Virus record (IMG/VR): IMGVR_UViG_3300026549_000004
Span: 5,916-69,915 of that record
Length of the DNA: 64,000 nt
From: a virus
Lineage: Duplodnaviria; Caudoviricetes
Direction: 5' to 3' (one strand)
Part shown: positions 3,848 through 58,103 of the stretch, one piece after another
Layout: each line of letters starts with the position of its first letter
Position numbering within the stretch: position 1 is the first letter of the stretch
The notes under the pieces: generated by a model
Databases searched by the model: none
What the model was told of the DNA's origin: nothing
The model's input: only the letters and a program-made list of their open reading frames with translations
Program-made: the position numbers and the translations under genes

Positions 3848-3955
3848 GTTTTACCCTCCTATATTAAATTGTTTTTAGTTTCCACACCGGCCGGAAAGAT
3901 CCGGCCACGCTTGCGGCCTAAATGGCTTTTTATAGTCGCCGCAACGACTGAAGTA

Positions 3956-8060: not shown

Positions 8061-8143
8061 CGGCAGATATGCAAGTGGTTAAAGCAGGCAGACTGTAAAT
8101 CTGTCCCCTTCGGGGTTCGATGGTTCAAATCCGTCTCTGCCGA
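8061..8143 (+). tRNA. tRNA-Tyr(GTA), long variable arm, C1:G72, no encoded CCA
   Basis: Cloverleaf CGGCAGA/TCTGCCG; D arm TGC/GCA; GCAGA-CTGTAAA-TCTGT; T arm GATGG-TTCAAAT-CCGTC; discriminator A. Confidence 0.92.
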
Positions 8144-8874: not shown

Positions 8875-8946
8875 AGGGGTGTAGCCAAATGGTAAGGCAC
8901 AGGATTTTGATTCCTGGTATTATGGGTTCGAATCCCATCATCCTTG
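8875..8946 (+). tRNA. tRNA-Gln(TTG), no encoded CCA
   Basis: AGGGGTG/CATCCTT; CAGGA-TTTTGAT-TCCTG; ATGGG-TTCGAAT-CCCAT. Confidence 0.92.
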
Positions 8947-16579: not shown

Positions 16580-17053
16580 TTGCCTATGATGACATCGAGG
16601 AAAAACAAGCAGAAACTTCTTTACAGTTTACAGGGCGATACGATACCTGTGTACGAAACTGACGATGAAGGAGAAGTTGTTTACGAAGAGATTGACGGGG
16701 AGCAGATTCCGGTAGAAACAGGCGATAGCTTTACTGGATATCAGACACCCGTCCCTTTTTATGGCAATCTTTCTTTCTATACGGGGTGGAACTATCCGGG
16801 TGTGTGGGGTGTTACGCTGAACAACGCTGATGCCATACTGCTGATGGATAAAAACGAACTTCCGATTGATGAAACCAGTCGGATCTGGTTCAAATCCACT
16901 CCTGTTCAGAAAACGGTACAGGTCTATGACGAAGACGAGAAGAAGATGGTTGAAAAGACCGTCATAGATGCTGATTCGGCAGACTTTTCCGTGTCAAGGA
17001 TCATTCCAAGCATCAACTGCGTGAGATATGTGCTGAAAGGTATTGAGAAATGA
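16580..17053 (+). CDS. Head closure protein
   Basis: Position in the neck module. Confidence 0.6.
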   Translation: MPMMTSRKNKQKLLYSLQGDTIPVYETDDEGEVVYEEIDGEQIPVETGDSFTGYQTPVPFYGNLSFYTGWNYPGVWGVTLNNADAILLMDKNELPIDETSRIWFKSTPVQKTVQVYDEDEKKMVEKTVIDADSADFSVSRIIPSINCVRYVLKGIEK

Positions 17054-17559
17054 AGCTGCAGATTAGCCTTTCAAAACCATCTATACAAAAGGCTCTTAAT
17101 CAGGCAAGAGAATATCAGCGAAAACTTAACGATAAGAACAGGCTGTTTGTAAAACGGCTTGCCGAATCTGGCATTCCTGTGATTGATTCGAACATTGAAC
17201 GGGCAGACGGTGACAGTGATAAGTATCATGATACCAAGATTATTCTGCATTCGTATGGCGATTATTCACAGGCAACACTTCAAGTCAGTGGCAAAGACAT
17301 CCTGTTTATTGAGTTTGGAGCAGGTATTCATTACAACAATTCTCCAATTCCTCACGCAGATAAATTTGGCTATGGCATAGGTACATATAATCCGGGTTCT
17401 GATAATGCATTTAACCCTGATGGATGGTGGTACAAGGATGATTCTGGAGCATCTCAGCATTCCTATGGTACTGAAGCCACCATGCCGATGCTGAAAGCCA
17501 GTAACGAGATAATCAACAACATTCGTAGGATTGCGAGGGAAGTATATGGCAGTAACTAA
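17050..17559 (+). CDS. Neck/tail completion protein (HK97 gp10-like)
   Basis: ILFIEFGAG motif. Confidence 0.7.
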   Translation: MKLQISLSKPSIQKALNQAREYQRKLNDKNRLFVKRLAESGIPVIDSNIERADGDSDKYHDTKIILHSYGDYSQATLQVSGKDILFIEFGAGIHYNNSPIPHADKFGYGIGTYNPGSDNAFNPDGWWYKDDSGASQHSYGTEATMPMLKASNEIINNIRRIAREVYGSN

Positions 17560-17959
17560 ACCATGGTGGGCAGAACTTGAATCAAGGCTGTTTACCCTGT
17601 ACAAGTCCAGAATGGGCAAGGCTCTCAAAGAGAAGTTTCCGAAACTGTACTGTACGGCTTCTCCCATGACGAAAGCTGCTTCGCAATTTCCTACGGCATA
17701 CTTCCGTATGGTCGATTGGATTGAACAGGGAAATGACCTTGAAAACACGGATGTCAATGCAATCTTGGCAACCGTGCAGGTGGATGTGATCGCCAATACA
17801 TCACTAAATGATTGTAAAGAAGTGGTTTACGAAACAACAAATATTATGAAATCGCTGAGTTTCAGCATTATTGGAATGCCTGTTTACTCAGCTCAAAATA
17901 ACTTATATGTAGGTGTTATTCGCTTCCGCAGGATGATTGGTGGGAGCGATTCTTTTTAG
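17546..17959 (+). CDS. Tail terminator protein
   Basis: Position before the major tail gene; SQFPTAY...QVDV. Confidence 0.65.
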   Translation: MAVTKPWWAELESRLFTLYKSRMGKALKEKFPKLYCTASPMTKAASQFPTAYFRMVDWIEQGNDLENTDVNAILATVQVDVIANTSLNDCKEVVYETTNIMKSLSFSIIGMPVYSAQNNLYVGVIRFRRMIGGSDSF

Positions 17960-17978
17960 TTAGAAAGGAGTGCTAATT

Positions 17979-18434
17979 ATGGCAGTACCTGGAGTAAGTT
18001 CTCTAAAAATGGAATTAGGAATGGGTGCATGGTCTGCAAGTGATAAAGGCCCGGCAAATGCCTTTACCAAGATGGGCAGAATCAATGCTATCGGTGGTAT
18101 TGAACTTTCTCAGGAGAATATCGATGCATCCGCAATTTCTGATGATGTATCTCAGTATGTTGCCGGTCGTGCCGACACAGGCGGTGAGTGGACAATCACG
18201 GTCAACGTAACAGATGAAACAATTACTGAGTGGGAGGCTATTGCCGGAACCACCAAATGGTTTGAGGTATACCATCCCAATCTTACAAAGGCATGGTTCG
18301 TAGCTGCACAGGTTCCGGGCAAGATTCCTGTACCTGAGATCGGACAGAACGAACTTCTGACGATGGAAATCAGCCTTACCGTACAGACACTGCATGGAAC
18401 GGCTACCAAAGTCACACCGACCGATCCGACATAA
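17979..18434 (+). CDS. Major tail tube protein
   Basis: ENIDASAISD...YVAGRADTGG; followed by a terminator. Confidence 0.85.
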   Translation: MAVPGVSSLKMELGMGAWSASDKGPANAFTKMGRINAIGGIELSQENIDASAISDDVSQYVAGRADTGGEWTITVNVTDETITEWEAIAGTTKWFEVYHPNLTKAWFVAAQVPGKIPVPEIGQNELLTMEISLTVQTLHGTATKVTPTDPT

Positions 18435-18449
18435 TAAGTTTTGTTGATC

Positions 18450-18495
18450 AGGGGGAGGGCCATCCTTCGGGGTGGCCCTTTCCCTTGTTTTTTTT
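18450..18495 (+). terminator. Intrinsic terminator after the major tail gene
   Basis: AGGGCCATCC-TTCG-GGGTGGCCCT stem plus long T-run. Confidence 0.8.
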
Positions 18496-18522
18496 AGTTT
18501 TTTACAGGGAAAGGAGCTACAC

Positions 18523-18861
18523 ATGAAAACATATATCGAATTAAACAAAAGGCGTTACGAAGCTGCGGAGTTCGACTTCAATACCGTGTGCGATCTGTAT
18601 GAGATGGGTGTTGACCTTGACAAGCTTCAGAAAGCACCTGCCCCGGCAATTCGTGCTTACATCGCAATTTGCATGGGTGCAGATAAAGACATTGCAGGAC
18701 GTGAGATTCAGGAGCATATCATTGGCGGTGGCACACTTGAAGAAGTTGGTGCAGTCATGGCACAGATGCTTGAGAAATCTGATTTTTTTCAGGCTCTCAA
18801 CAAGAGCAAGGAAAAGACTACTCCAGCAAGGAAAGCAACGAAGAAAGAAAAGGAAGAGTAA
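18523..18861 (+). CDS. Tail assembly chaperone (G-like)
   Basis: RBS GGAAAGGAG; position; slippery site near the 3' end. Confidence 0.8.
   Translation: MKTYIELNKRRYEAAEFDFNTVCDLYEMGVDLDKLQKAPAPAIRAYIAICMGADKDIAGREIQEHIIGGGTLEEVGAVMAQMLEKSDFFQALNKSKEKTTPARKATKKEKEE
18783..18789 (+). other. Putative -1 programmed frameshift site T-TTT-TTT (G/GT fusion)
   Basis: The -1 frame from 18783 has no stop and joins ORF 18918..19217. Confidence 0.75.
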
Positions 18862-18917
18862 AATTATATCCTTCCCTGCGTGAGTTCTATCGAAGCGAAG
18901 TTCTTCCTGAATGCTTA

Positions 18918-19217
18918 ATGGCAGGAATGTCTGAGGAAAGATTCTGGAGATCAAATCCGAGAACCATTGAGCCGTATTTCATAGCCCGTGAAAAGCGGAT
19001 CTTTGAAATTGACAGGCTTTCTCATGTGATGGGTGCTTATGTATATAATGCCGTGTCTGCAGCTATGACAGGATTAGGCAAACATCCGAAACCATACAGA
19101 GACAAGCCTTTCCTTGCTGAAGAAGAAGAACGTTTGCGGATTGAACGAATGTCAGAAGAAGAAAAGTTGCGAGAAGTGGAGAAGATCTTCGAACAGCTTG
19201 ATCGTAACGTCAGATGA
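18918..19217 (+). CDS. Tail assembly chaperone T portion
   Basis: GMSEERFW...PY motif; no good RBS; in the -1 frame of the G gene. Confidence 0.75.
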   Translation: MAGMSEERFWRSNPRTIEPYFIAREKRIFEIDRLSHVMGAYVYNAVSAAMTGLGKHPKPYRDKPFLAEEEERLRIERMSEEEKLREVEKIFEQLDRNVR

Positions 19218-19232
19218 TAAGGTGGTGATGGA

Positions 19233-20861
19233 ATGGCAGATAATGTTATTGACACCCTATCGATAGAAATCAAATCAACAAGTTCGTCAGCCAACAGAGC
19301 CATAAACTCTTTGGTCAGCGGTCTTGAGAAACTCGACAATGCCTTGAATTCCTACTCAGGAGGAGCATCTGCCTTTGAAGGTGCATTAAATAATCTTGAG
19401 AAGGGATTTAATCGTCTAAACAGCATCATCAATTCTGTAGACGTTGGAAAGCTGACAAGCATCTCAGGTGCGATCAATTCGCTGTCCAACGCATCGTCAA
19501 AAGCAAACGGTGATAATCTTGTCGGTCTTGCTAATGGCATCAGGGATGTTGCAAGTGCGTCAACAGGTATCAGTAATGGTTCGAATCTTGATGGCTTTAT
19601 AAAAACTGTGTCATCTTTTGGCTACAAAACTGTATCCAATGCGGCACAGAACATGCCACAGCTTTCCAAGGGGCTTCAGCAGTTAAGTGGGGTTACCATT
19701 CCGAACTTCGGAGACTTATCCGGCTTAAGCAATTTCATCAACACTATCAGTCAGCTTGGATTGAAGAAGGGAACGGGAGCTGCATTTAACATTCAGCCTC
19801 TTGTTGCCGGATTGCAACAGTTATACTCTGTGGCAGGTCAAGCACCGCCTGATGCTTCTGGCATACTGAACATTGCGAATGCGTTCTCCGTCATGGGAAG
19901 AGATACAACACTTCGTGCAGTTCAGAACATGCCACAGCTTGCCGATGCTTTCCGAAAACTGGTTTCTTCGTTAGCAAACGTGCCGAAAGTACGGTCCGAT
20001 GTGATTGCTCTGGCAAATGCCATGGCAAAAATGTCTGCCAACGGTTCAAAGGTAGGCAGTTCTTCAAGAAGCCTGTCAAGTGCGTTAAGGCAACAGCAGG
20101 CATCCCAAGAGAACCTTGCCAAGTCTTTCCGTAATATTATTTCCAATACACAAAAGACAAGCAAGGCAATCACAGGATTTGTCAAGAATCTGCTCTTCTC
20201 ACGGCAAGGTGCAGATCAAGCAGGCAGAAGTTATAGCACACTGGCTGCAAAAGTTGGTTTGCTATATGCCAAGTTTTGGATGCTTTTAAGAGCGGTCCGC
20301 ATGGTCGGCAGACTGATGGAAGTCGCATCGTCACTTACCGAAGTTCAGAATGTAGTTGATGCTACTTTCGGTAATATGTCGAAGAAAATTGAGGATTTTT
20401 CCAAGAATGCGATTAAAGACTTCGGTATGTCCGAACTGTCTGCTAAAACATTTGCATCGCAATTCCAAGCGATGGGAACTGCGATGGGTATTACAGGATC
20501 ACAGGTAGCTAATGCTCAAAAGATGCTGAATACCAAAAAGACCATGGAAGGTAATGTTTTGGGATATAATGCTGCTTCAAAGTCTATGGCTGACATGTCA
20601 GTGAATTTAACGAAGTTAACCGCTGATATGGCTTCGTTCTACAACGTGTCTCAAGAGACAGTTGCCAAGGCTTTGCAGAGTGGTGTAATGGCTGGACAAA
20701 CCAGACCACTAAGACAATACGGTATTGATCTTTCCCAAGCGACATTACAAGAGTGGGCATTAAACCACGGAATACAGGCGAACTTTAAGACAATGACGCA
20801 GGCTCAAAAAGCCATGATAAGATATCAATATGTGATGAGTCAGAGTGCGAAAGCCCAAGGT
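19233..20861 (+). CDS. Tape measure protein, exon 1 (543 codons, ends ...AKAQG)
   Basis: TMP repeats; the frame stops shortly after entering intron 1. Confidence 0.88.
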
Positions 20862-21185
20862 AGTCGGGTGGTAGCGTGATCAATGCTTAGTTATCATCCT
20901 TGCCGTCTACGGTGAATCCAACAAGTAGACCGTAGATTATAACCGAAGGATTAAGCGGAGAACTGCTTTGCAAGCACAATCCGAGAGTGAAGGTCATCCG
21001 CAAAAAGATGGTCAACCGCAACGCATAGATGGTGATCCTTATGCTGAGATGCATAAGACCATAACCCATCCAAGAGACTTCGGCATCGGTTGGAATGTTC
21101 CGCAGAGGAACATGGTGAAAATATATGCTCGTCTATACTGTAATGGTATAGGGTATGGATAAAAAGCCATGCCATGAAGATTACG
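20862..21185 (+). ncRNA. Group I intron 1 (324 nt, no ORF)
   Basis: Exon ends in U, intron ends in G; P4 CGGA/TCCG; P3 AAGGAT/ATCCTT; P7 GCATA(21023)/TATGC(21124). Confidence 0.82.
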
Positions 21186-21206
21186 GACTTCGCTCGCACT
21201 TCCGGT
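21186..21206 (+). CDS. Tape measure protein micro-exon 2 (21 nt, DFARTSG)
   Basis: GACTTCGCTCGCACTTCCGGT restores the QG-DFARTSG-TWxNQ tape-measure motif in frame. Confidence 0.85.
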
Positions 21207-21497
21207 AGAATAAAACGTGCCGCCTAACACAGTAATGTGTTATGGAAAAACCGGGCAATATCGGTGAATCCTAAGTTCAATGAATATGGCAACACCGAGA
21301 TAACACAGGGAATTAAAGAGCCTTGTGCATCGTAGAGAGTAGGAACTGAAACTGTTTTAGCAGAATATAATGTTTCCCAAGAGTGTCCGGCATCCCAAGA
21401 GGATGATGATGTACTCCAACCTGGGGATGAAATAACATCCCATCATGCGAGGAAACTCCCAGAAATGTAGGATAAAAAGCCTGCATGGTAATATTGG
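21207..21497 (+). ncRNA. Group I intron 2 (291 nt, no ORF)
   Basis: IGS ACGTGCCG (21215-21222) pairs both exon ends (CGGU|ACGU); P3 CCGGGCA/TGTCCGG; P4 TCGGTG/CACCGA; P7 GAGTA/TACTC; terminal G. Confidence 0.88.
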
Positions 21498-24188
21498 ACG
21501 TGGCATAATCAGATTGTTATCTTAAAACAGCAGTTACAACAGCTTGCGGCAGTCATTGGTTCAGGCTTAATACAAGCCATAAAACCATTCGTACAACAAT
21601 TTAACGCAGCCCTGTCCGGGTTGATTGCATTTGCACAGAAAGTAGTCAACGCATTAGGCAAAATCTTTGGATGGGAGATGGAAGTCAACACCAAAGGACT
21701 TGCCATTGATGATGATGCTATCGAAGATGGTGCAGATGCTATGGGTAACCTTGGTGATGCAGCCGATAAAGCATCCAAATCCACCAAGGAACTGAACAAA
21801 CAGCTACAGGGCTTTGATAAGCTGAATGTCCTGACCACAAAGAAAGATAATTCTTCATCCAAGAAAAAGGACGATGATTCGAAGTCTGGAACTGGAACGG
21901 CTGTCGTAGACACAGGAGATGCTACCGCAGCACTCAAGAAAACCAAGGGTGTATTTGAATCTGAGATTGACAACCTGTTTGATCTTGGAAGATACATCAG
22001 CAATGCTCTGTCAAAACAGATGGAGAAGATTAACTGGAATGCGGTTTACGAAAAGGCAAGGAGTTTTGGAGCAGGTCTTGCGAACTTCCTAAACGGATTG
22101 ATCACGCCAAGGCTTTTCTATAACGTAGGAAGAACAATCTCAAGTTCAATCAGTACGGCTTTCCATTTCCTTGATTCGTTTGGTCAGACGTTTGATTGGA
22201 AAAACTTCGGAAAGTCTATCGGTGCCGGTATCAATGGATTTCTCGCAGGATTCGATTGGGTAACCATCAAGAGTGCTGCGAAGAATTGGGGATCTGGACT
22301 TGCCGATACAATCATGAGTGCAGTGGCAGAAACCGATTTCCATGGCATTGGCGAAGCACTGATGCATGCCCTTGATACGGCACTGACCTTTGCTTTCGAG
22401 CTTGGAAGTGGACTTGATTTCACGGAAATCGGTACAAGGCTTGCTGATGGTATCAATGGAGCAATCGAAAACTTCCCAGCAGAGAAATTTGCTAATACCA
22501 TTGACGAATGGGTTCAAGGTCTTTGGGATATGATTGTTTCGTGCCTAAGTCAGATTCACTGGGATGACCTTGGCGAAAAGATCAAGGAATTTGTTGGCAA
22601 CATTGATCCAAAGACATGGCGAATTCTGGTTGGTGGACTGATATTACTGAAGGCTGGTAGTTTTGCTATATCTCTTTCAGAGGAAATAATTAAGCAGGCC
22701 GGGTTAAACATTGCTACGTCATTGGCTGCAAAACTTCCTGGAATTTTAGGTGGTAACGCAGCTCTTCAGGGAGCTATCGGTACTGGCCTTGGAGACGCAG
22801 CAGCAGCTGCCACGGGTGGTGGAGCATTGGCTGCAGATGGTGCAGGAGCAGCAGCAGAGGGAGCAGGAGCAGCAACGGCACTTGAAGGGCTTGGTGCATC
22901 TGCAGGAGCAGCGGCAGCCCCAATAGGGGTGCTTGTGGCTTTGCTTGCATCTCTTGCTGTTGGCCTTGGATATGTTTATGCAACATCGGAAGAAGTCAGA
23001 CAGGGTTTTTCGGATGCAGTAACTACAATTCAAGAATCCATGCAACCAGCTTTGCAGTTTATGACCGACACGGTTCTTCCAGACATCCAAAATGGATTCC
23101 AAGGATTGATGGATATATTATCGCCACTTGGGGATTTTCTTAACGATGTGTTTAAATCCATATGGATTGATATGATTAATCCCGGATTAGAGTATTTAGG
23201 CACAACAATTCTGCCCCTGTTGACGGATGTGTTTGAGGAATTGTGGAATCAGGTATTGGTTCCGTTAGGCAAATTCTTGGGTGATGTGTTCAGACCAATT
23301 ATCAGCACATTGTCAAAAGTGCTTGGTACGTTGTGGAAGAATGTAGTAGTTCCTCTCGCTAAAGCGGTTGGCACAGTTCTTGGTGGTGCTTTTGAAATTA
23401 TTGGCACTATATTCAAAAATGTTATCATACCAATTGTTAATGTAGTTATAAAAGTATTCAGCTTTTTGTGGAATAATGTGTTGGTTCCAGTAGGTAAGTT
23501 TGTTTCCACAGTTTTAGGGCCGGTATTTGAAACTGCATTTAAAGCGATTGGAGATGTAATAGGGAATATTACAGAAATATTTAGCGGTCTGATTGATTTT
23601 ATTTCTGGAGTGTTTTCCGGGGATTGGAAAAAGGCATGGAATGGCATTAAGAAGGTATTTAAGGGAATATGGGATACACTTGCAACAATTGTTAAAACTC
23701 CCATCAATTTGATTATAGGATTGTTTGAAGGACTTGTTAATGGAATTATCGGTGCCTTTAATGCGATAAAACGTGCGTTGAATCATCTCCATTTCACAGT
23801 TCCTGATTGGGTTCCTGGCATTGGTGGCTCAGAATTCGGATTCAATTTTAGCATGACATCAAAAATGAAGATCCCACGCCTTGAAAAAGGTGGATTCCTT
23901 CCGTATGGATCATCGATGTTCATCGCAGGTGAACACGGAATACCTGAGTTGCTTGGTACTGTCAATGGCAAGAATGCCGTAGCAGGCGGTGCTGAAATCA
24001 CAGGTATTCGTGATGAAATCCACGATTCCAGTAATCGTCAGCTTGCCAACGATAATCGGATTATTCAGTTGTTGACAATCATAGCAGAAAAGGAATTCGG
24101 CATCACACAAGATGCTATGTTCCGAGCAGTAAGAAACAGTGCTTCTGACTATACGATGCGTACAGGCAGAGGTGCTTTTGAATTTTAG
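21498..24188 (+). CDS. Tape measure protein, exon 3 (spliced product about 1446 aa)
   Basis: Frame is open from 21498 (TWHNQIVILKQQ...) into track ORF 21621..24188. Confidence 0.88.
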   Translation, partial: TWHNQIVILKQQLQQLAAVIGSGLIQAIKPFVQQFNAALSGLIAFAQKVVNALGKIFGWEMEVNTKGLAIDDDAIEDGADAMGNLGDAADKASKSTKELNKQLQGFDKLNVLTTKKDNSSSKKKDDDSKSGTGTAVVDTGDATAALKKTKGVFESEIDNLFDLGRYISNALSKQMEKINWNAVYEKARSFGAGLANFLNGLITPRLFYNVGRTISSSISTAFHFLDSFGQTFDWKNFGKSIGAGINGFLAGFDWVTIKSAAKNWGSGLADTIMSAVAETDFHGIGEALMHALDTALTFAFELGSGLDFTEIGTRLADGINGAIENFPAEKFANTIDEWVQGLWDMIVSCLSQIHWDDLGEKIKEFVGNIDPKTWRILVGGLILLKAGSFAISLSEEIIKQAGLNIATSLAAKLPGILGGNAALQGAIGTGLGDAAAAATGGGALAADGAGAAAEGAGAATALEGLGASAGAAAAPIGVLVALLASLAVGLGYVYATSEEVRQGFSDAVTTIQESMQPALQFMTDTVLPDIQNGFQGLMDILSPLGDFLNDVFKSIWIDMINPGLEYLGTTILPLLTDVFEELWNQVLVPLGKFLGDVFRPIISTLSKVLGTLWKNVVVPLAKAVGTVLGGAFEIIGTIFKNVIIPIVNVVIKVFSFLWNNVLVPVGKFVSTVLGPVFETAFKAIGDVIGNITEIFSGLIDFISGVFSGDWKKAWNGIKKVFKGIWDTLATIVKTPINLIIGLFEGLVNGIIGAFNAIKRALNHLHFTVPDWVPGIGGSEFGFNFSMTSKMKIPRLEKGGFLPYGSSMFIAGEHGIPELLGTVNGKNAVAGGAEITGIRDEIHDSSNRQLANDNRIIQLLTIIAEKEFGITQDAMFRAVRNSASDYTMRTGRGAFEF

Positions 24189-24233
24189 GGATGGATGTAA
24201 TGTCCATCCCTTTTTGATTAAGGGGGACGAATC

Positions 24234-24644
24234 ATGGCTTTCAATGGTTCTTTAATTAAACTAAGCGGTGATAACTTCCCGTTGAAATATGTATACAAGG
24301 AATCATACAAGGTTACGCCAAACAGACGGCAAGACCTTGATCCTTATCGTGACGCAAACGGATTGCTTCACAGAAACACGCTTTCGCACACAGCTACCAC
24401 GATTACTTTCCAGACCAAGCCGATGTGGAATGACGAATTTGATGCCATGATGAGCTTCATTCGGTCGCACTATACGAAGTCGCTTGAGAAAAAATTGCAT
24501 ATCACGTACTTCAGCCCGGATCTTAATGATTACAGGACGGGCGATTTTTATGTTCCTGATGTCGAGTACAACATGGATCTGGTTGATACGGTCAAGCGGA
24601 AAATCTTTTATCTGTCTACTACTCTTGAGTTCATTGAGTATTAG
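24234..24644 (+). CDS. Distal tail / baseplate-proximal protein
   Basis: Follows the TMP; DPYRDANGLLHR motif. Confidence 0.7.
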   Translation: MAFNGSLIKLSGDNFPLKYVYKESYKVTPNRRQDLDPYRDANGLLHRNTLSHTATTITFQTKPMWNDEFDAMMSFIRSHYTKSLEKKLHITYFSPDLNDYRTGDFYVPDVEYNMDLVDTVKRKIFYLSTTLEFIEY

Positions 24645-24656
24645 GGGGGTGGTTCT

Positions 24657-27600
24657 TTGATTGATATAACCGAACTTGTCCAAAGTGCGTTTCAAGGGCC
24701 ATATCCTAAAGAGCTTACTCTTGAATTTCCAATAGGCAGAACGCTCACAAACGAAAACATTCTCACGGAATCCATGTCACTGGAGCAATCGGTATGCGAT
24801 GAAAGCAATCTGACTTTCGGCATGGTGTATTCCACATGTTTTTCCGTGACGATCTTTGATGACGGATTGTCATATACAGGACTAAAGGTTAATCCAAAGA
24901 TTACTGCGGTTTATGAATCGGCAGACACTGGTGCGATCAGTCGGTTTTATCGTGAACTTGGCTCCTATACGGTCAAATCCGATAATTTGACAGCCGACAA
25001 GATGTACCGTGAGCTGAAGTGCTATGACGCCTTGGCTGATGTTCTTTCGTTTGATTATTCAGAGTGGCATAACTCCCTTCGTGCATCTTCGTTTACGTTA
25101 AAGACGTATCGAGATGCATTTTTTAGTTATGTAGGTATTCAACAGGAAGAAGTATCACTGCCAAACGATTCGGTAACACTACAAAAGTTTACCGTAGATA
25201 AGTTAAGTGGATCGCAAATCATCGGCACGATTCTTCAGTTAACCGGCACTTTTGGATTCATTCGAATCAACAATGGGAAGTTCACCTACGTTCATCCGTC
25301 TACTACACCACAGACAACTATCGATGACAGTTCATACATCCAAGGATCTTTAAGCTACGAAGACGAACAGATGGTTGCGATATCGGGCGTTAAGGTTGTC
25401 GGATATTCCGACAGCTATACCGGTGATGATGGCGAAACAGAAGACAGGGGCATGGACAATGCTGTTGCCGGAACAAGTAACGGCAGTGTTTATGAGGTTC
25501 CTGACAATTTTCTGATTCACTTATCTGACCTGAGTACACGTTTGGAAATCGCAAGGGCGATATTTGCCAAGGTAAAAAACTACACCTATCATTCGGTTGA
25601 TGTCGAACTTCCACCGTATATGGGATTAGAACCTGGGGATGTCGTGCAAATCGTTACTGACCGAAAGACGGTTACGTTTCCGATACTCCACAGATCATTA
25701 AGTGGCATTTCTGCTCTCAGGGATCACTTTGAAGCAAAGGGCGAAGGGCAGATTTCCAGTAATGCTGGATCGGTATCTGGCGGTGTCAGTTCAACTGCAA
25801 TGGCGGTGAATCAGATCCGCTTAAGTGTTTCTGAGCTTCTGGCAAGAAAAGCATCGGTCGAGTCCCTGACCGCATCCAATGCAAGAATTACAACGCTTGA
25901 AGCATCAGATGTGACCATCAACAACGTGTTGAACGCACATAAGGCAAACATCGAAAGCCTTGAGGCAAACAAGGCCAATGTGACAGACCTTAGTGCTTCG
26001 AACGCAAGGATTGCCACACTTGAAACAGGATATGCAAGCGTCAGTCAGCTTGAAGCCAACTATGCAAACATCAAGACGATACTGTCAGGAAACATCGGAA
26101 CAGGTGATTTGCAGACCATTCATCTGACATCTGCAAACTCCGTTGTGGATCAGGCGGTCATTCGAAACCTTGTATCACAGTACATATCGGTTTCCGATTT
26201 GCTTGCCGGGACAATCAGCACGAATAAGTTTACTGTTGCTTCGGACGATGGTGCTTTTAGCATTGACGGTGCTACTCAAACCATTAAGGACGGAAACGGG
26301 AATGTCCGTATCCAGATGGGACAGGATGCAAGCGGAAACTTCACTTTTGTTCTCTACGATGCAACGGGGCAAGGCGTCTTGCTCGATGCTACAGGCATTA
26401 AGGAATCTGCGATAGCTGATGGTTTGATCAAGGATGCCAAGGTGGCTTCTGATGCAGGAATCAAGGGTAGCAAGCTGGATATCGATTCAGTTGTTACCGA
26501 GATGAATAAGCCGGGTACAACGGTTATTAAATCCAACAAGATTTGGTTTGATGATTCAAGCCAGACGCTGACACAGGCTTTTTCAGCAGTGTCCACATCA
26601 GTTACCAATGCAACCACGCTTGCAGAAACGGCTAATGCCAATGCGGATGCAGCTATCCGAGCCATTGAAGGTATTTCTTCACTTGACAATGTTACTGCGG
26701 TATTAAGTAGCGATAGTCATGTAGTCCATACAAACTACGATGGAACGGGCGGTGTTTACACATACGCAAATACCCAAGTGTCTGCCTACAAAGGCGATGC
26801 TGACATTTCTTCACAGGTCAACATAACATATACGGCATCCACAGGACTGACAGGCACATGGACAGCATCGACAAGAACCTACCAAGTAACCTCTCTAACT
26901 ACGGATAACGGATATGTGGATTTCACGGTTACATATACTCCGCAGAATGGCAACGCTGTCACTGTAACAAAGAGATTCTCTATTGCCAAAGCTCCTGACG
27001 GACGTGCAGGATCAGCCTACACACTGCAATCATCGGTGGACGTTGTACAGAAAAGATCTGGTGGAATCTTCCGACCGGAAACCGTGGTCTTTTCATCGTT
27101 GGAATCTATTGGATCAAGCACGTTGCCGTATACAGGCATTTATCAGATAGAGGAATCGGCAGATGCGTCTACATGGGTGCAGAAATACATCTCAGGGAGT
27201 GCTGAATCAACCGTAACTTACAGACCGACATCATCGGCTGAATACATACGATGCACGTTGTTTGATTCCTACAATGTCTATCTTGCATCCAAGACATTGA
27301 CGGCTATTCCAGATGCTTCGGAACTTGCTGACGAAATCTCTGAAGCACAGGGAACGATCCAAAGCATATCTTCAAGGGTTGGTGTGGTTGAATCAGGCAT
27401 CAATGGGTTAAGTGTTGATCTTGCTGACACCAAGGAAGAACTTCACGGTTTGGCAGACAACACTCTGCTTTATCAGGTGATCACAAATTACAACGCATCC
27501 GACATCGTAACTCTTGAAGCAAGGATTTACCAGAACGGATTAGACATCCACACGGATTATCCTGCACCATGGTTCTCTTGGCATAAAAAGACGGAAGATG

Positions 27601-57383: not shown

Positions 57384-58103
57384 ATGAGAGTTCAATCACA
57401 TAATTACAACAACGTCCAAGGATGGATGGTAACTGAATTAAAACTGTTTGGTGGCGAGTTGTTAATTTACTCCGCTATTTATGGATTCACCCAGGAACAG
57501 AACCAGTGGTACACGGGGGCAAGACAATATCTTGCAGATTGGACAGGATGCACAAAGCAAACCGTCACAAAATATTTGAAAAGTCTTGTGGAAAAAGGAT
57601 TGATAATTAGAAGGGAAAGGGCAGAGAACGGGGTAATATTTGTAGACTACAGGGCGAATATTTCACCTACGGTAGCTGAAAAAATCACCGGGGTAGGTGA
57701 AAATTTCACCTACGGTAGTAAAAATAATCATCTGGGGGTAGGTGAAAATTTCAACCCAATAAATAATAGTAATTCTAATAATACTAAAACATCTAATAAA
57801 AATAATATATGTAAGCACCGATACGGTGAATACAACAATGTTTTATTGACCGATGAGGAATACCATAAGTTGCAAAAAGAAGTTCCTGATTATGAAGAAT
57901 GGATTCAGAAATGTTCTGAATATGTGGCAAGCACAGGTAAATCTTACAAAAGCCACTATGCAACGATAAGAAAGTGGATCAGGAAAGAACAGAAAGAGCA
58001 AATGAAACCATCAAAGAGAAGTCAGGAATTTACCTCTGAATTGGCACAAATAGCATCTTGGGCAGAAAGGAGCGAAGGGCATGACCAGACAGGAATTTGG
58101 TAA
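57384..58103 (+). CDS. Replication initiator (N-terminal wHTH)
   Basis: ARQYLADWTGCTKQTV; internal iterons; KSYKSHYATIRKW. Confidence 0.8.
   Translation: MRVQSHNYNNVQGWMVTELKLFGGELLIYSAIYGFTQEQNQWYTGARQYLADWTGCTKQTVTKYLKSLVEKGLIIRRERAENGVIFVDYRANISPTVAEKITGVGENFTYGSKNNHLGVGENFNPINNSNSNNTKTSNKNNICKHRYGEYNNVLLTDEEYHKLQKEVPDYEEWIQKCSEYVASTGKSYKSHYATIRKWIRKEQKEQMKPSKRSQEFTSELAQIASWAERSEGHDQTGIW
57660..57760. repeat. Putative replication origin iterons inside the initiator gene
   Basis: GTAGGTGAAA-A-TTTCACCTAC palindrome (57693-57713), repeated half-sites at 57661 and 57735, then an AT-rich tract. Confidence 0.75.

Follow-up and report, generated by a model that had tools for sequence, protein, structure and literature searches.

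Two predicted ORF-less group I introns of one family around a 21-nt micro-exon in a phage tape measure protein gene

The closest described counterpart of the locus presented in this study is orf142, the tail tube gene of phage Twort, which in the accounts cited here is interrupted by three group I introns (Landthaler & Shub 1999; PMC10136302, PMC3073962, PMC11878797). Two of these accounts report that a 23-nt exon, lying between the IA2 introns I2 and I3, is either skipped or retained (PMC10136302, PMC3073962). Group I introns have also been described in the tape measure protein (TMP) genes of Bacillus cereus-group prophages, in which IVS1-3 occupy three sites (Tourasse & Kolsto 2008, PMC2504315). 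A very short exon between group I introns is known, moreover, from the 23S rRNA of Coxiella burnetii (34 nt; as cited in PMC10136302) and from mitochondrial cox1 (micro-exons, e.g. PMC5436844), but these are non-phage cases, placed in rRNA or organellar genes and involving introns of other subgroups. Exon skipping has been observed with engineered tandem Tetrahymena introns, where distinct splice-site recognition sequences suppress it effectively (PMC10136302).

The stretch of DNA analysed here (the window; 64,000 nt) comes from an IMG/VR phage record of 69,915 bp, which has terminal repeats and of which it covers the greater part. In its TMP gene we found what are, with high confidence, two independent ORF-less group I introns of one family, placed 21 nt apart around a translated micro-exon. 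The layout is not new, since it closely repeats that of Twort orf142, and group I introns of TMP genes have already been published (PMC2504315). As in Twort, two ORF-less, IA2-type introns of the same family enclose an exon of approximately 20 nt in a tail structural gene. However, the host gene is a different one (TMP), the exon is 21 nt long, so that its skipping would be in-frame (a point already made in the original prediction), and the introns, known here from sequence alone, share only about 42% identity, unlike the highly similar I2 and I3. The locus resembles IVS1-3 of B. cereus in that IA1/IA2 introns reside in a siphophage TMP gene, related introns fit nearby sites through changes in P1 and in the internal guide sequence (IGS), and ORF-less copies are common to different phages. 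In contrast to our case, the B. cereus strains named carry IVS1 and IVS3 or IVS2 and IVS3, and the combination of IVS1 with IVS2, as well as a micro-exon, is not described (PMC2504315).

The long tail gene starting at position 19233 was identified as the TMP gene by matches to tape-measure profiles (PHROG), as well as by tblastn. Exon 1 ends with ...GCC CAA GGT, the last base of which is U20861, and its frame runs into a stop at 20879; the TMP frame resumes at 21498 with the codons ACG TGG CAT AAT (TWHN). The PHROG profiles match exon 1 to its last residue and then the start of exon 3, with 7-8 profile positions missing between them. In the gap lies a 21-nt segment coding for DFARTSG, which ends, like exon 1, in U (21206). 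The break and the resumption of the frame, the junctions, the U at both 5' splice sites and the terminal G residues (G21185 and G21497) are all as given in the original prediction. The predicted micro-exon exactly rebuilds the conserved TMP motif, and because it supplies the missing near-invariant residues in the right frame, a chance origin is ruled out. Joining of the three exons (543+7+896) would yield a protein of 1446 aa, the size that had been estimated beforehand. The peptide spanning both junctions of the fully spliced form is predicted to be AQGDFARTSGTWHNQ, and its exon-skipped counterpart AQGTWHNQ.

About 130 uninterrupted homologues read ...QGDFARTxxTW(A/H)NQ... across the junctions, so the proposed reconstruction of QG-DFARTSG-TWxNQ agrees with the homologue alignment suggested as a check of it. 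Intron-less TMPs of Anaerostipes, Streptococcus and Solobacterium phages, for example, read ...GDFARTSDGWANQ.... Among 80 relatives from IMG/VR, a strict search for the contiguous motif matched 61, and closer inspection showed an uninterrupted reading in six more, among them L084 with QGDFARTSGTWANQ. The motif was contiguous, with no intron match, in 67 of the 80 metagenome relatives; L231 reads through too.

Table 1. Exons of the TMP gene and elements of the two predicted introns (positions in the window)
Feature	Position	Strand	Remarks and basis
TMP exon 1	19233..20861	+	543 aa, ends ...SAKAQG; tblastn and PHROG matches to residue 543
Intron 1, predicted ORF-less group I	20862..21185	+	324 nt; putative divergent member of the Twort-like IA2 family; terminal G 21185
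Intron 1 P1	20859-62/20901-04	+	alignment A3
Intron 1 P1a	20866-75/20890-99	+	alignment A3
Intron 1 IGS, UGCC	20901..20904	+	pairs with G20859 G20860 U20861 and, across the splice site, A20862; read from sequence
Intron 1 P2	20906-13/20929-36	+	alignment A3
Intron 1 P3	20943-48/21078-83	+	alignment A3; at family position
Intron 1 P4	20956-59/20980-83	+	alignment A3
Intron 1 P5	20964-68/20972-76	+	alignment A3
Intron 1 P6a	20992-98/21007-13	+	alignment A3
Intron 1 P7	21023-27/21124-28	+	alignment A3
Intron 1 P7.1	21028-32/21066-70	+	alignment A3
Intron 1 P8	21084-87/21114-17	+	alignment A3
Intron 1 P8a	21095-101/21107-13	+	alignment A3
Intron 1 P9	21133-38/21146-51	+	alignment A3
Intron 1 P9.2	21152-58/21167-73	+	alignment A3
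Micro-exon, DFARTSG	21186..21206	+	21 nt; motif in uninterrupted homologues; identical in sister phage G001
Intron 2, predicted ORF-less group I	21207..21497	+	291 nt; RF00028 (below gathering score), R1, R2; homologues at the same site
Intron 2 IGS	21215-21222	+	sequence reading, family models
Intron 2 P3	21251-56/21385-90	+	sequence reading, family models
Intron 2 P7	21337-41/21412-16	+	sequence reading, family models
Intron 2 terminal G	21497	+	sequence reading, family models
TMP exon 3	21498..24188	+	896 aa plus stop; starts TWHNQ

Members of the intron family were collected by a scan for the J8/7-P7'-P9.2 signature, which revealed family introns in more than 105 IMG/VR contigs. Relatives were also found by blastn in phages of Staphylococcus, Clostridium perfringens, Clostridioides difficile, Streptococcus and Arcanobacterium, the last of these matches lying inside a TMP gene. 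Two covariance models were built from contigs other than the window: R1 for the 5' half of the introns (P2, P4, P5 and P6) and R2 for the 3' half (P7, P7.1, P8, P9 and P9.2). The helices of the 5' half covary across the family, and 33 of 34 members show covariation in the long-range helix P3, the partner of P7 in the pseudoknot. The helices of the 3' half are 95% paired and 21 of 29 pairs are changed on both sides, values that none of 500 shuffles reached. At its gathering score, RF00028 did not match 11 other loci bearing family introns and, since intron 2 also falls below that score, this model under-detects the family.

The family is related to introns of Twort. R2 matched Twort positions 17099-17238 and 17458-17547, both in the orf142 region, which has a virion structural gene on one side and an intron-encoded nuclease on the other, as well as 57537-57626, between two nrdE fragments. 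These matches reach 34-39 bits, and P7, J7/9, P9, P9.2 and the 3' tail align. In addition, P7.1 (in intron 1 also P7.1a) and P9/P9.2 are present and covary, as in IA2 introns. The R2 matches to the orf142 and nrdE introns, together with the P7.1 and P9.x helices, indicate that introns 1 and 2 belong to the Twort-like IA2 kind.

The IGS of intron 2, ACGTGCCG (21215-21222), base-pairs with the ends of both exons, as described in the original prediction. Its P1 (CGGUA/UGCCG) contains the wobble pair U21206.G21219, P10 is formed by ACGU/ACGU and covaries in relatives, and P7 by GAGTA/TACTC. Scanning with group I models, which had been proposed as a check, gave a divided result. Neither the window nor the entire record gave an intron match to Rfam at its gathering thresholds; intron 2 scored 38.2 bits (E 6.5e-8) against RF00028, under the gathering score of 50 bits, and intron 1 gave no match. 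With the family models, intron 2 scored 111.7 bits (R1) and 91.9 bits (R2), and R2 matched intron 1 as well.

Approximately 24 of 160 TMP relatives (12 from IMG/VR and about 12 from metagenomes) contain an intron at the exact site of intron 2, the interruption falling between DFxRTxx and [T/S]WxNQ. Some of these copies are ORF-less and about 300 nt long, while others, of about 1.2 kb, encode a 296-aa GIY-YIG/NUMOD1 endonuclease placed in the P5 loop. All of them have U as the last base of the 5' exon and G as that of the intron (the latter in 12/12 of the IMG/VR relatives). Moreover, both P1 (GGT/GCC, GAT/GTC, GCT/GGC) and P10 (ACAT/ATGT, AGTT/AACT and, in the window, ACGT/ACGT) covary with the exon. 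In the loci L009, L029 and L073 and in similar ones, the last codons of the endonuclease gene (...KWISQ, stop) enter the 3' strand of P5a, which means that coding sequence and ribozyme structure overlap.

With their GIY-YIG/NUMOD1 ORF of about 296 aa, the long copies resemble mobile introns of the I-TevI type. In contrast, the introns of the window carry no endonuclease ORF. None of the ORFs inside introns 1 and 2 matched a Pfam family, in line with what had been predicted, whereas the intron ORF of a relative, used as a control, matched GIY-YIG. The introns of the window could move only by recombination or with the help of an endonuclease acting in trans.

Intron 1 is the most divergent member of the family (42-56% identity to the others) and was found only in the phage of the window and in one sister phage, G001 (IMGVR_UViG_3300021387_000158), which was found via a 16-mer specific to this intron. 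G001 is a separate IMG/VR record of 70,285 bp, also with terminal repeats. Searches with intron 1 by blastn gave only two weak 3'-end matches in 50,697 phage records and a single 70-nt 3'-end match in a set of 185 loci; an exact 25-mer of the intron was absent from the metagenome contigs searched, and no other intron was seen at site 1 in the 160 TMP relatives. The 5'-half model R1 did not detect intron 1. R2 matched it over the full model length (21018-21190, 72.1 bits, E 4e-14), up to the predicted 3' splice site, the next-best match in the window being 11.6 bits, and nhmmer gave an E value of 1.4e-15. It should be borne in mind that the scan pattern was partly derived from intron 1 and from L035, so that about 25 nt of the R2 match are not independent. 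In intron 1, J6/7-P7 (CAACGCAUAGA), CCAAGAG, J8/7-P7' (GAAAAUAUAUGC) and the P9.2 loop AUAAAAAG correspond to the family consensus.

The 5' half of intron 1 was modelled solely from a three-sequence alignment (A3), in which the intron is set against two G001 sequences, namely the corresponding intron and a paralogue with 69% identity. The model of the whole intron contains 15 helices with 87 pairs (P1, P1a, P2, P3, P4, P5, P6, P6a, P7, P7.1, P7.1a, P8, P8a, P9 and P9.2); it is 99.6% paired over this alignment, and 32 of its pairs are compensatory, changed on both sides. None of 500 shuffles reached these values, and slid controls were 33-46% paired. P3 is a perfect 6-bp helix (CCGAAG/CUUCGG) at the family position, and P7 consists of GCATA/TATGC; its covariation, like that of P7 of intron 2, had been noticed from the outset. 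The ViennaRNA centroid fold shows P1 with P1a, P2, P4/P5, P8a, P9 and P9.2. The 15-helix fold, the covariation and the R2 matches to both introns bear out the proposal of two separate group I introns.

An IGS of intron 1 had been sought in the original prediction, but none as clear as that of intron 2 was found. We identified it as UGCC, which pairs with GGU↓A (the arrow marks the splice site) in a P1 that includes the wobble U20861.G20902. Neither the IGS nor the pairing of P1 varies among the three A3 sequences, and the IGS lies directly 5' of P2, at the place where alignment A1 puts the IGS of the family. The P1 loop holds an additional hairpin of 10 bp, which covaries. Only P10 is weak, comprising 2 bp at most; P10 is dispensable in some group I introns. 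Earlier assignments of TGCCG to P3 and of the hairpin 20906-36 to P4/P5 were dropped, since the family alignment places P3 at 20943-48. The complementarity of AGUC (20862-65) to GACU (21186-89) was considered as a substitute for P10 and rejected because of its wrong geometry; it is likely due to chance.

The two phages are 90-97% identical over positions 17000-27000 (10-kb divergence of 3-10%), and the block consisting of intron 1, the 21-nt exon and intron 2 is also present in G001. Across 20844-21508, which takes in this block together with 18 nt of exon upstream and 11 nt downstream, 14 of the 665 positions are different, none of them in the 21 nt of the micro-exon. In the adjoining exon sequence, in contrast, the divergence is 19-24% (26/108 positions upstream, 20736-20843, and 8/42 downstream, 21509-21550). 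All substitutions in stems keep the pairing, and P9.2 of intron 1 has four changed pairs. The low divergence and the kept stem pairs fit selection on the RNA fold. The conservation of the block may also reflect a recent transfer or gene conversion: a segment with about 2% divergence inside exon sequence diverged by 19-24% is the pattern that would be expected of intron transfer with co-conversion.

The G001 paralogue of intron 1 (327 nt; L286:1491-1817, minus strand) is inserted after ...ADTG (GGU↓) in the homologue of the window gene 17970-18434, at the equivalent of approximately position 18182, and the window copy of this gene is uninterrupted. The window gene (154 aa) has a Pfam tail-tube match, which is sub-threshold only, and a search of PHROGs gave no name for it (17970-18431). 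The G001 gene hosting the paralogue is a probable tail tube gene, which would parallel the intron-rich tail tube gene of Twort. Two further introns, 0a and 0b (L195, reverse complement, 441-1956), are present in the TMP gene of G001 and absent from the window. Between them lies an exon of 14 nt, TAAGACAATACGGT, which contributes ...L-RQYG, and whose window equivalent (20710-20723) is uninterrupted. Intron 0a (1254 nt) contains a GIY-YIG ORF and gave a weak match to RF00028, and intron 0b (248 nt) is an ORF-less family member (R2, 131.8 bits). The TMP gene of G001 thus holds four introns within about 175 nt of coding sequence.

Closely spaced introns seem to be common in such phages. On an 89.8-kb IMG/VR contig (L105, minus strand, 401-2030), a 1.6-kb stretch holds three introns of the family, and what looks like an exon of only about 35 nt lies between two of these. 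At another locus (L122, 6369-6950), an RF00028-type intron (85 bits) lies about 80-100 nt upstream of a family intron, and a TMP gene in L157 (19-826) is interrupted by a second intron of the family, about 185 nt before site 2. Among other RNA elements, the window contains a match to the Pistol ribozyme (3882-3949, minus strand; 62.2 bits versus a gathering score of 34.5) and two tRNA genes on the plus strand (8061-8143 and 8875-8946; 52 and 66.7 bits), the first with a long variable arm.

From these data we infer that each intron would fold as its own ribozyme, with its guide sequence (UGCC; GUGCCG in intron 2) pairing with the ...GGU end of its 5' exon. Each would be removed independently by two guanosine-initiated transesterifications, and the joining of exon 1, the 21-nt exon and exon 3 would then produce an mRNA for the 1446-aa TMP with QGDFARTSGTW. 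The original prediction had also suggested that the two events are ordered and might gate the timing of lysis. Nothing was found that indicates an obligatory order, nor did we find any basis for a role in lysis timing. Within the micro-exon, the first bases provide the 3' exon contacts for intron 1 and the last five enter P1 for intron 2, with no overlap between the two. Intron 2 probably occupies a recurrent homing site of the TMP family, served by the GIY-YIG-bearing copies in relatives, and would have lost its endonuclease ORF in the window. Intron 1 would represent a rarer, secondary invasion of the neighbouring ...GGU site.

The reading that deserves most attention beside this one is that exon skipping is substantial or regulated: intron 2, or a composite ribozyme, would use the 5' splice site of intron 1 and give an in-frame TMP without DFARTSG. 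The two 5' splice sites share the sequence GGU↓A and the two guides UGCC, so cross-recognition would cost no base pairs, which makes skipping mechanistically plausible; the 21-nt exon keeps the frame, and precedents exist in the 23-nt exon of Twort orf142 and in the engineered Tetrahymena introns (PMC10136302). We nevertheless consider it unlikely. Skipping would remove some of the best-conserved residues of TMPs of this family, from an exon without a single substitution in G001, where the exon sequence close by has diverged by 19-24%, and the low identity of the two introns, unlike that of the Twort pair, makes a composite ribozyme less likely. A bolder version is more doubtful still. It assumes that intron 1, the micro-exon and intron 2 form a transferable cassette in a hot spot for introns in siphophage tail genes, to which the four closely packed introns of G001 with their 14-nt and 21-nt exons would belong, and that the sharing of GGU↓A and UGCC yields a skipped, in-frame TMP isoform that is used, e.g. 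to tune the amount of functional TMP.

It is very improbable that intron 1 is a decaying, splicing-defective remnant, which would leave the TMP broken or reliant on a host or phage splicing factor. Its divergence, its failure to match RF00028 and R1 and its weak P10 could be taken in this sense, but all 15 helices are intact, J6/7, J8/7 and CCAAGAG follow the family consensus, and the compensatory changes show selection on the fold. Moreover, TMP is an essential tail gene, and the two records, which have terminal repeats, represent complete phage genomes. That no introns are involved at all, and that the gap is explained by one 636-nt insertion or a twintron, by translational bypass or by an artefact of assembly, is improbable in the extreme. 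A broken frame alone would be compatible with it; the locus, however, contains two ribozyme cores, both complete and both with a P1 and a terminal G of their own, an exact and conserved 7-codon coding segment between them, and the same arrangement in the independent record G001. Known bypass gaps are far shorter than the one seen here, in which every frame is closed by stops. A twintron was rejected, as was a single composite intron, because the ribozymes are complete and adjacent, with coding sequence between them, and neither lies inside the other. Two independent introns around a translated exon thus remain the preferred reading.

To conclude, the splicing mechanism proposed here is itself textbook and implies no new principle. 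The annotation of such genes is directly affected, as annotation pipelines split this TMP into two or three broken ORFs, and the two introns with the 7-codon exon would give the correct protein of 1446 aa. The locus offers a natural tandem pair of group I introns with a middle exon that is a multiple of three, by which inclusion and skipping could be read at the protein level, and in this respect it complements Twort orf142 and the engineered Tetrahymena systems. G001, with its four TMP introns and 14-nt exon, and the multi-intron contigs illustrate that this intron family can pack densely into one conserved stretch of a tail gene.
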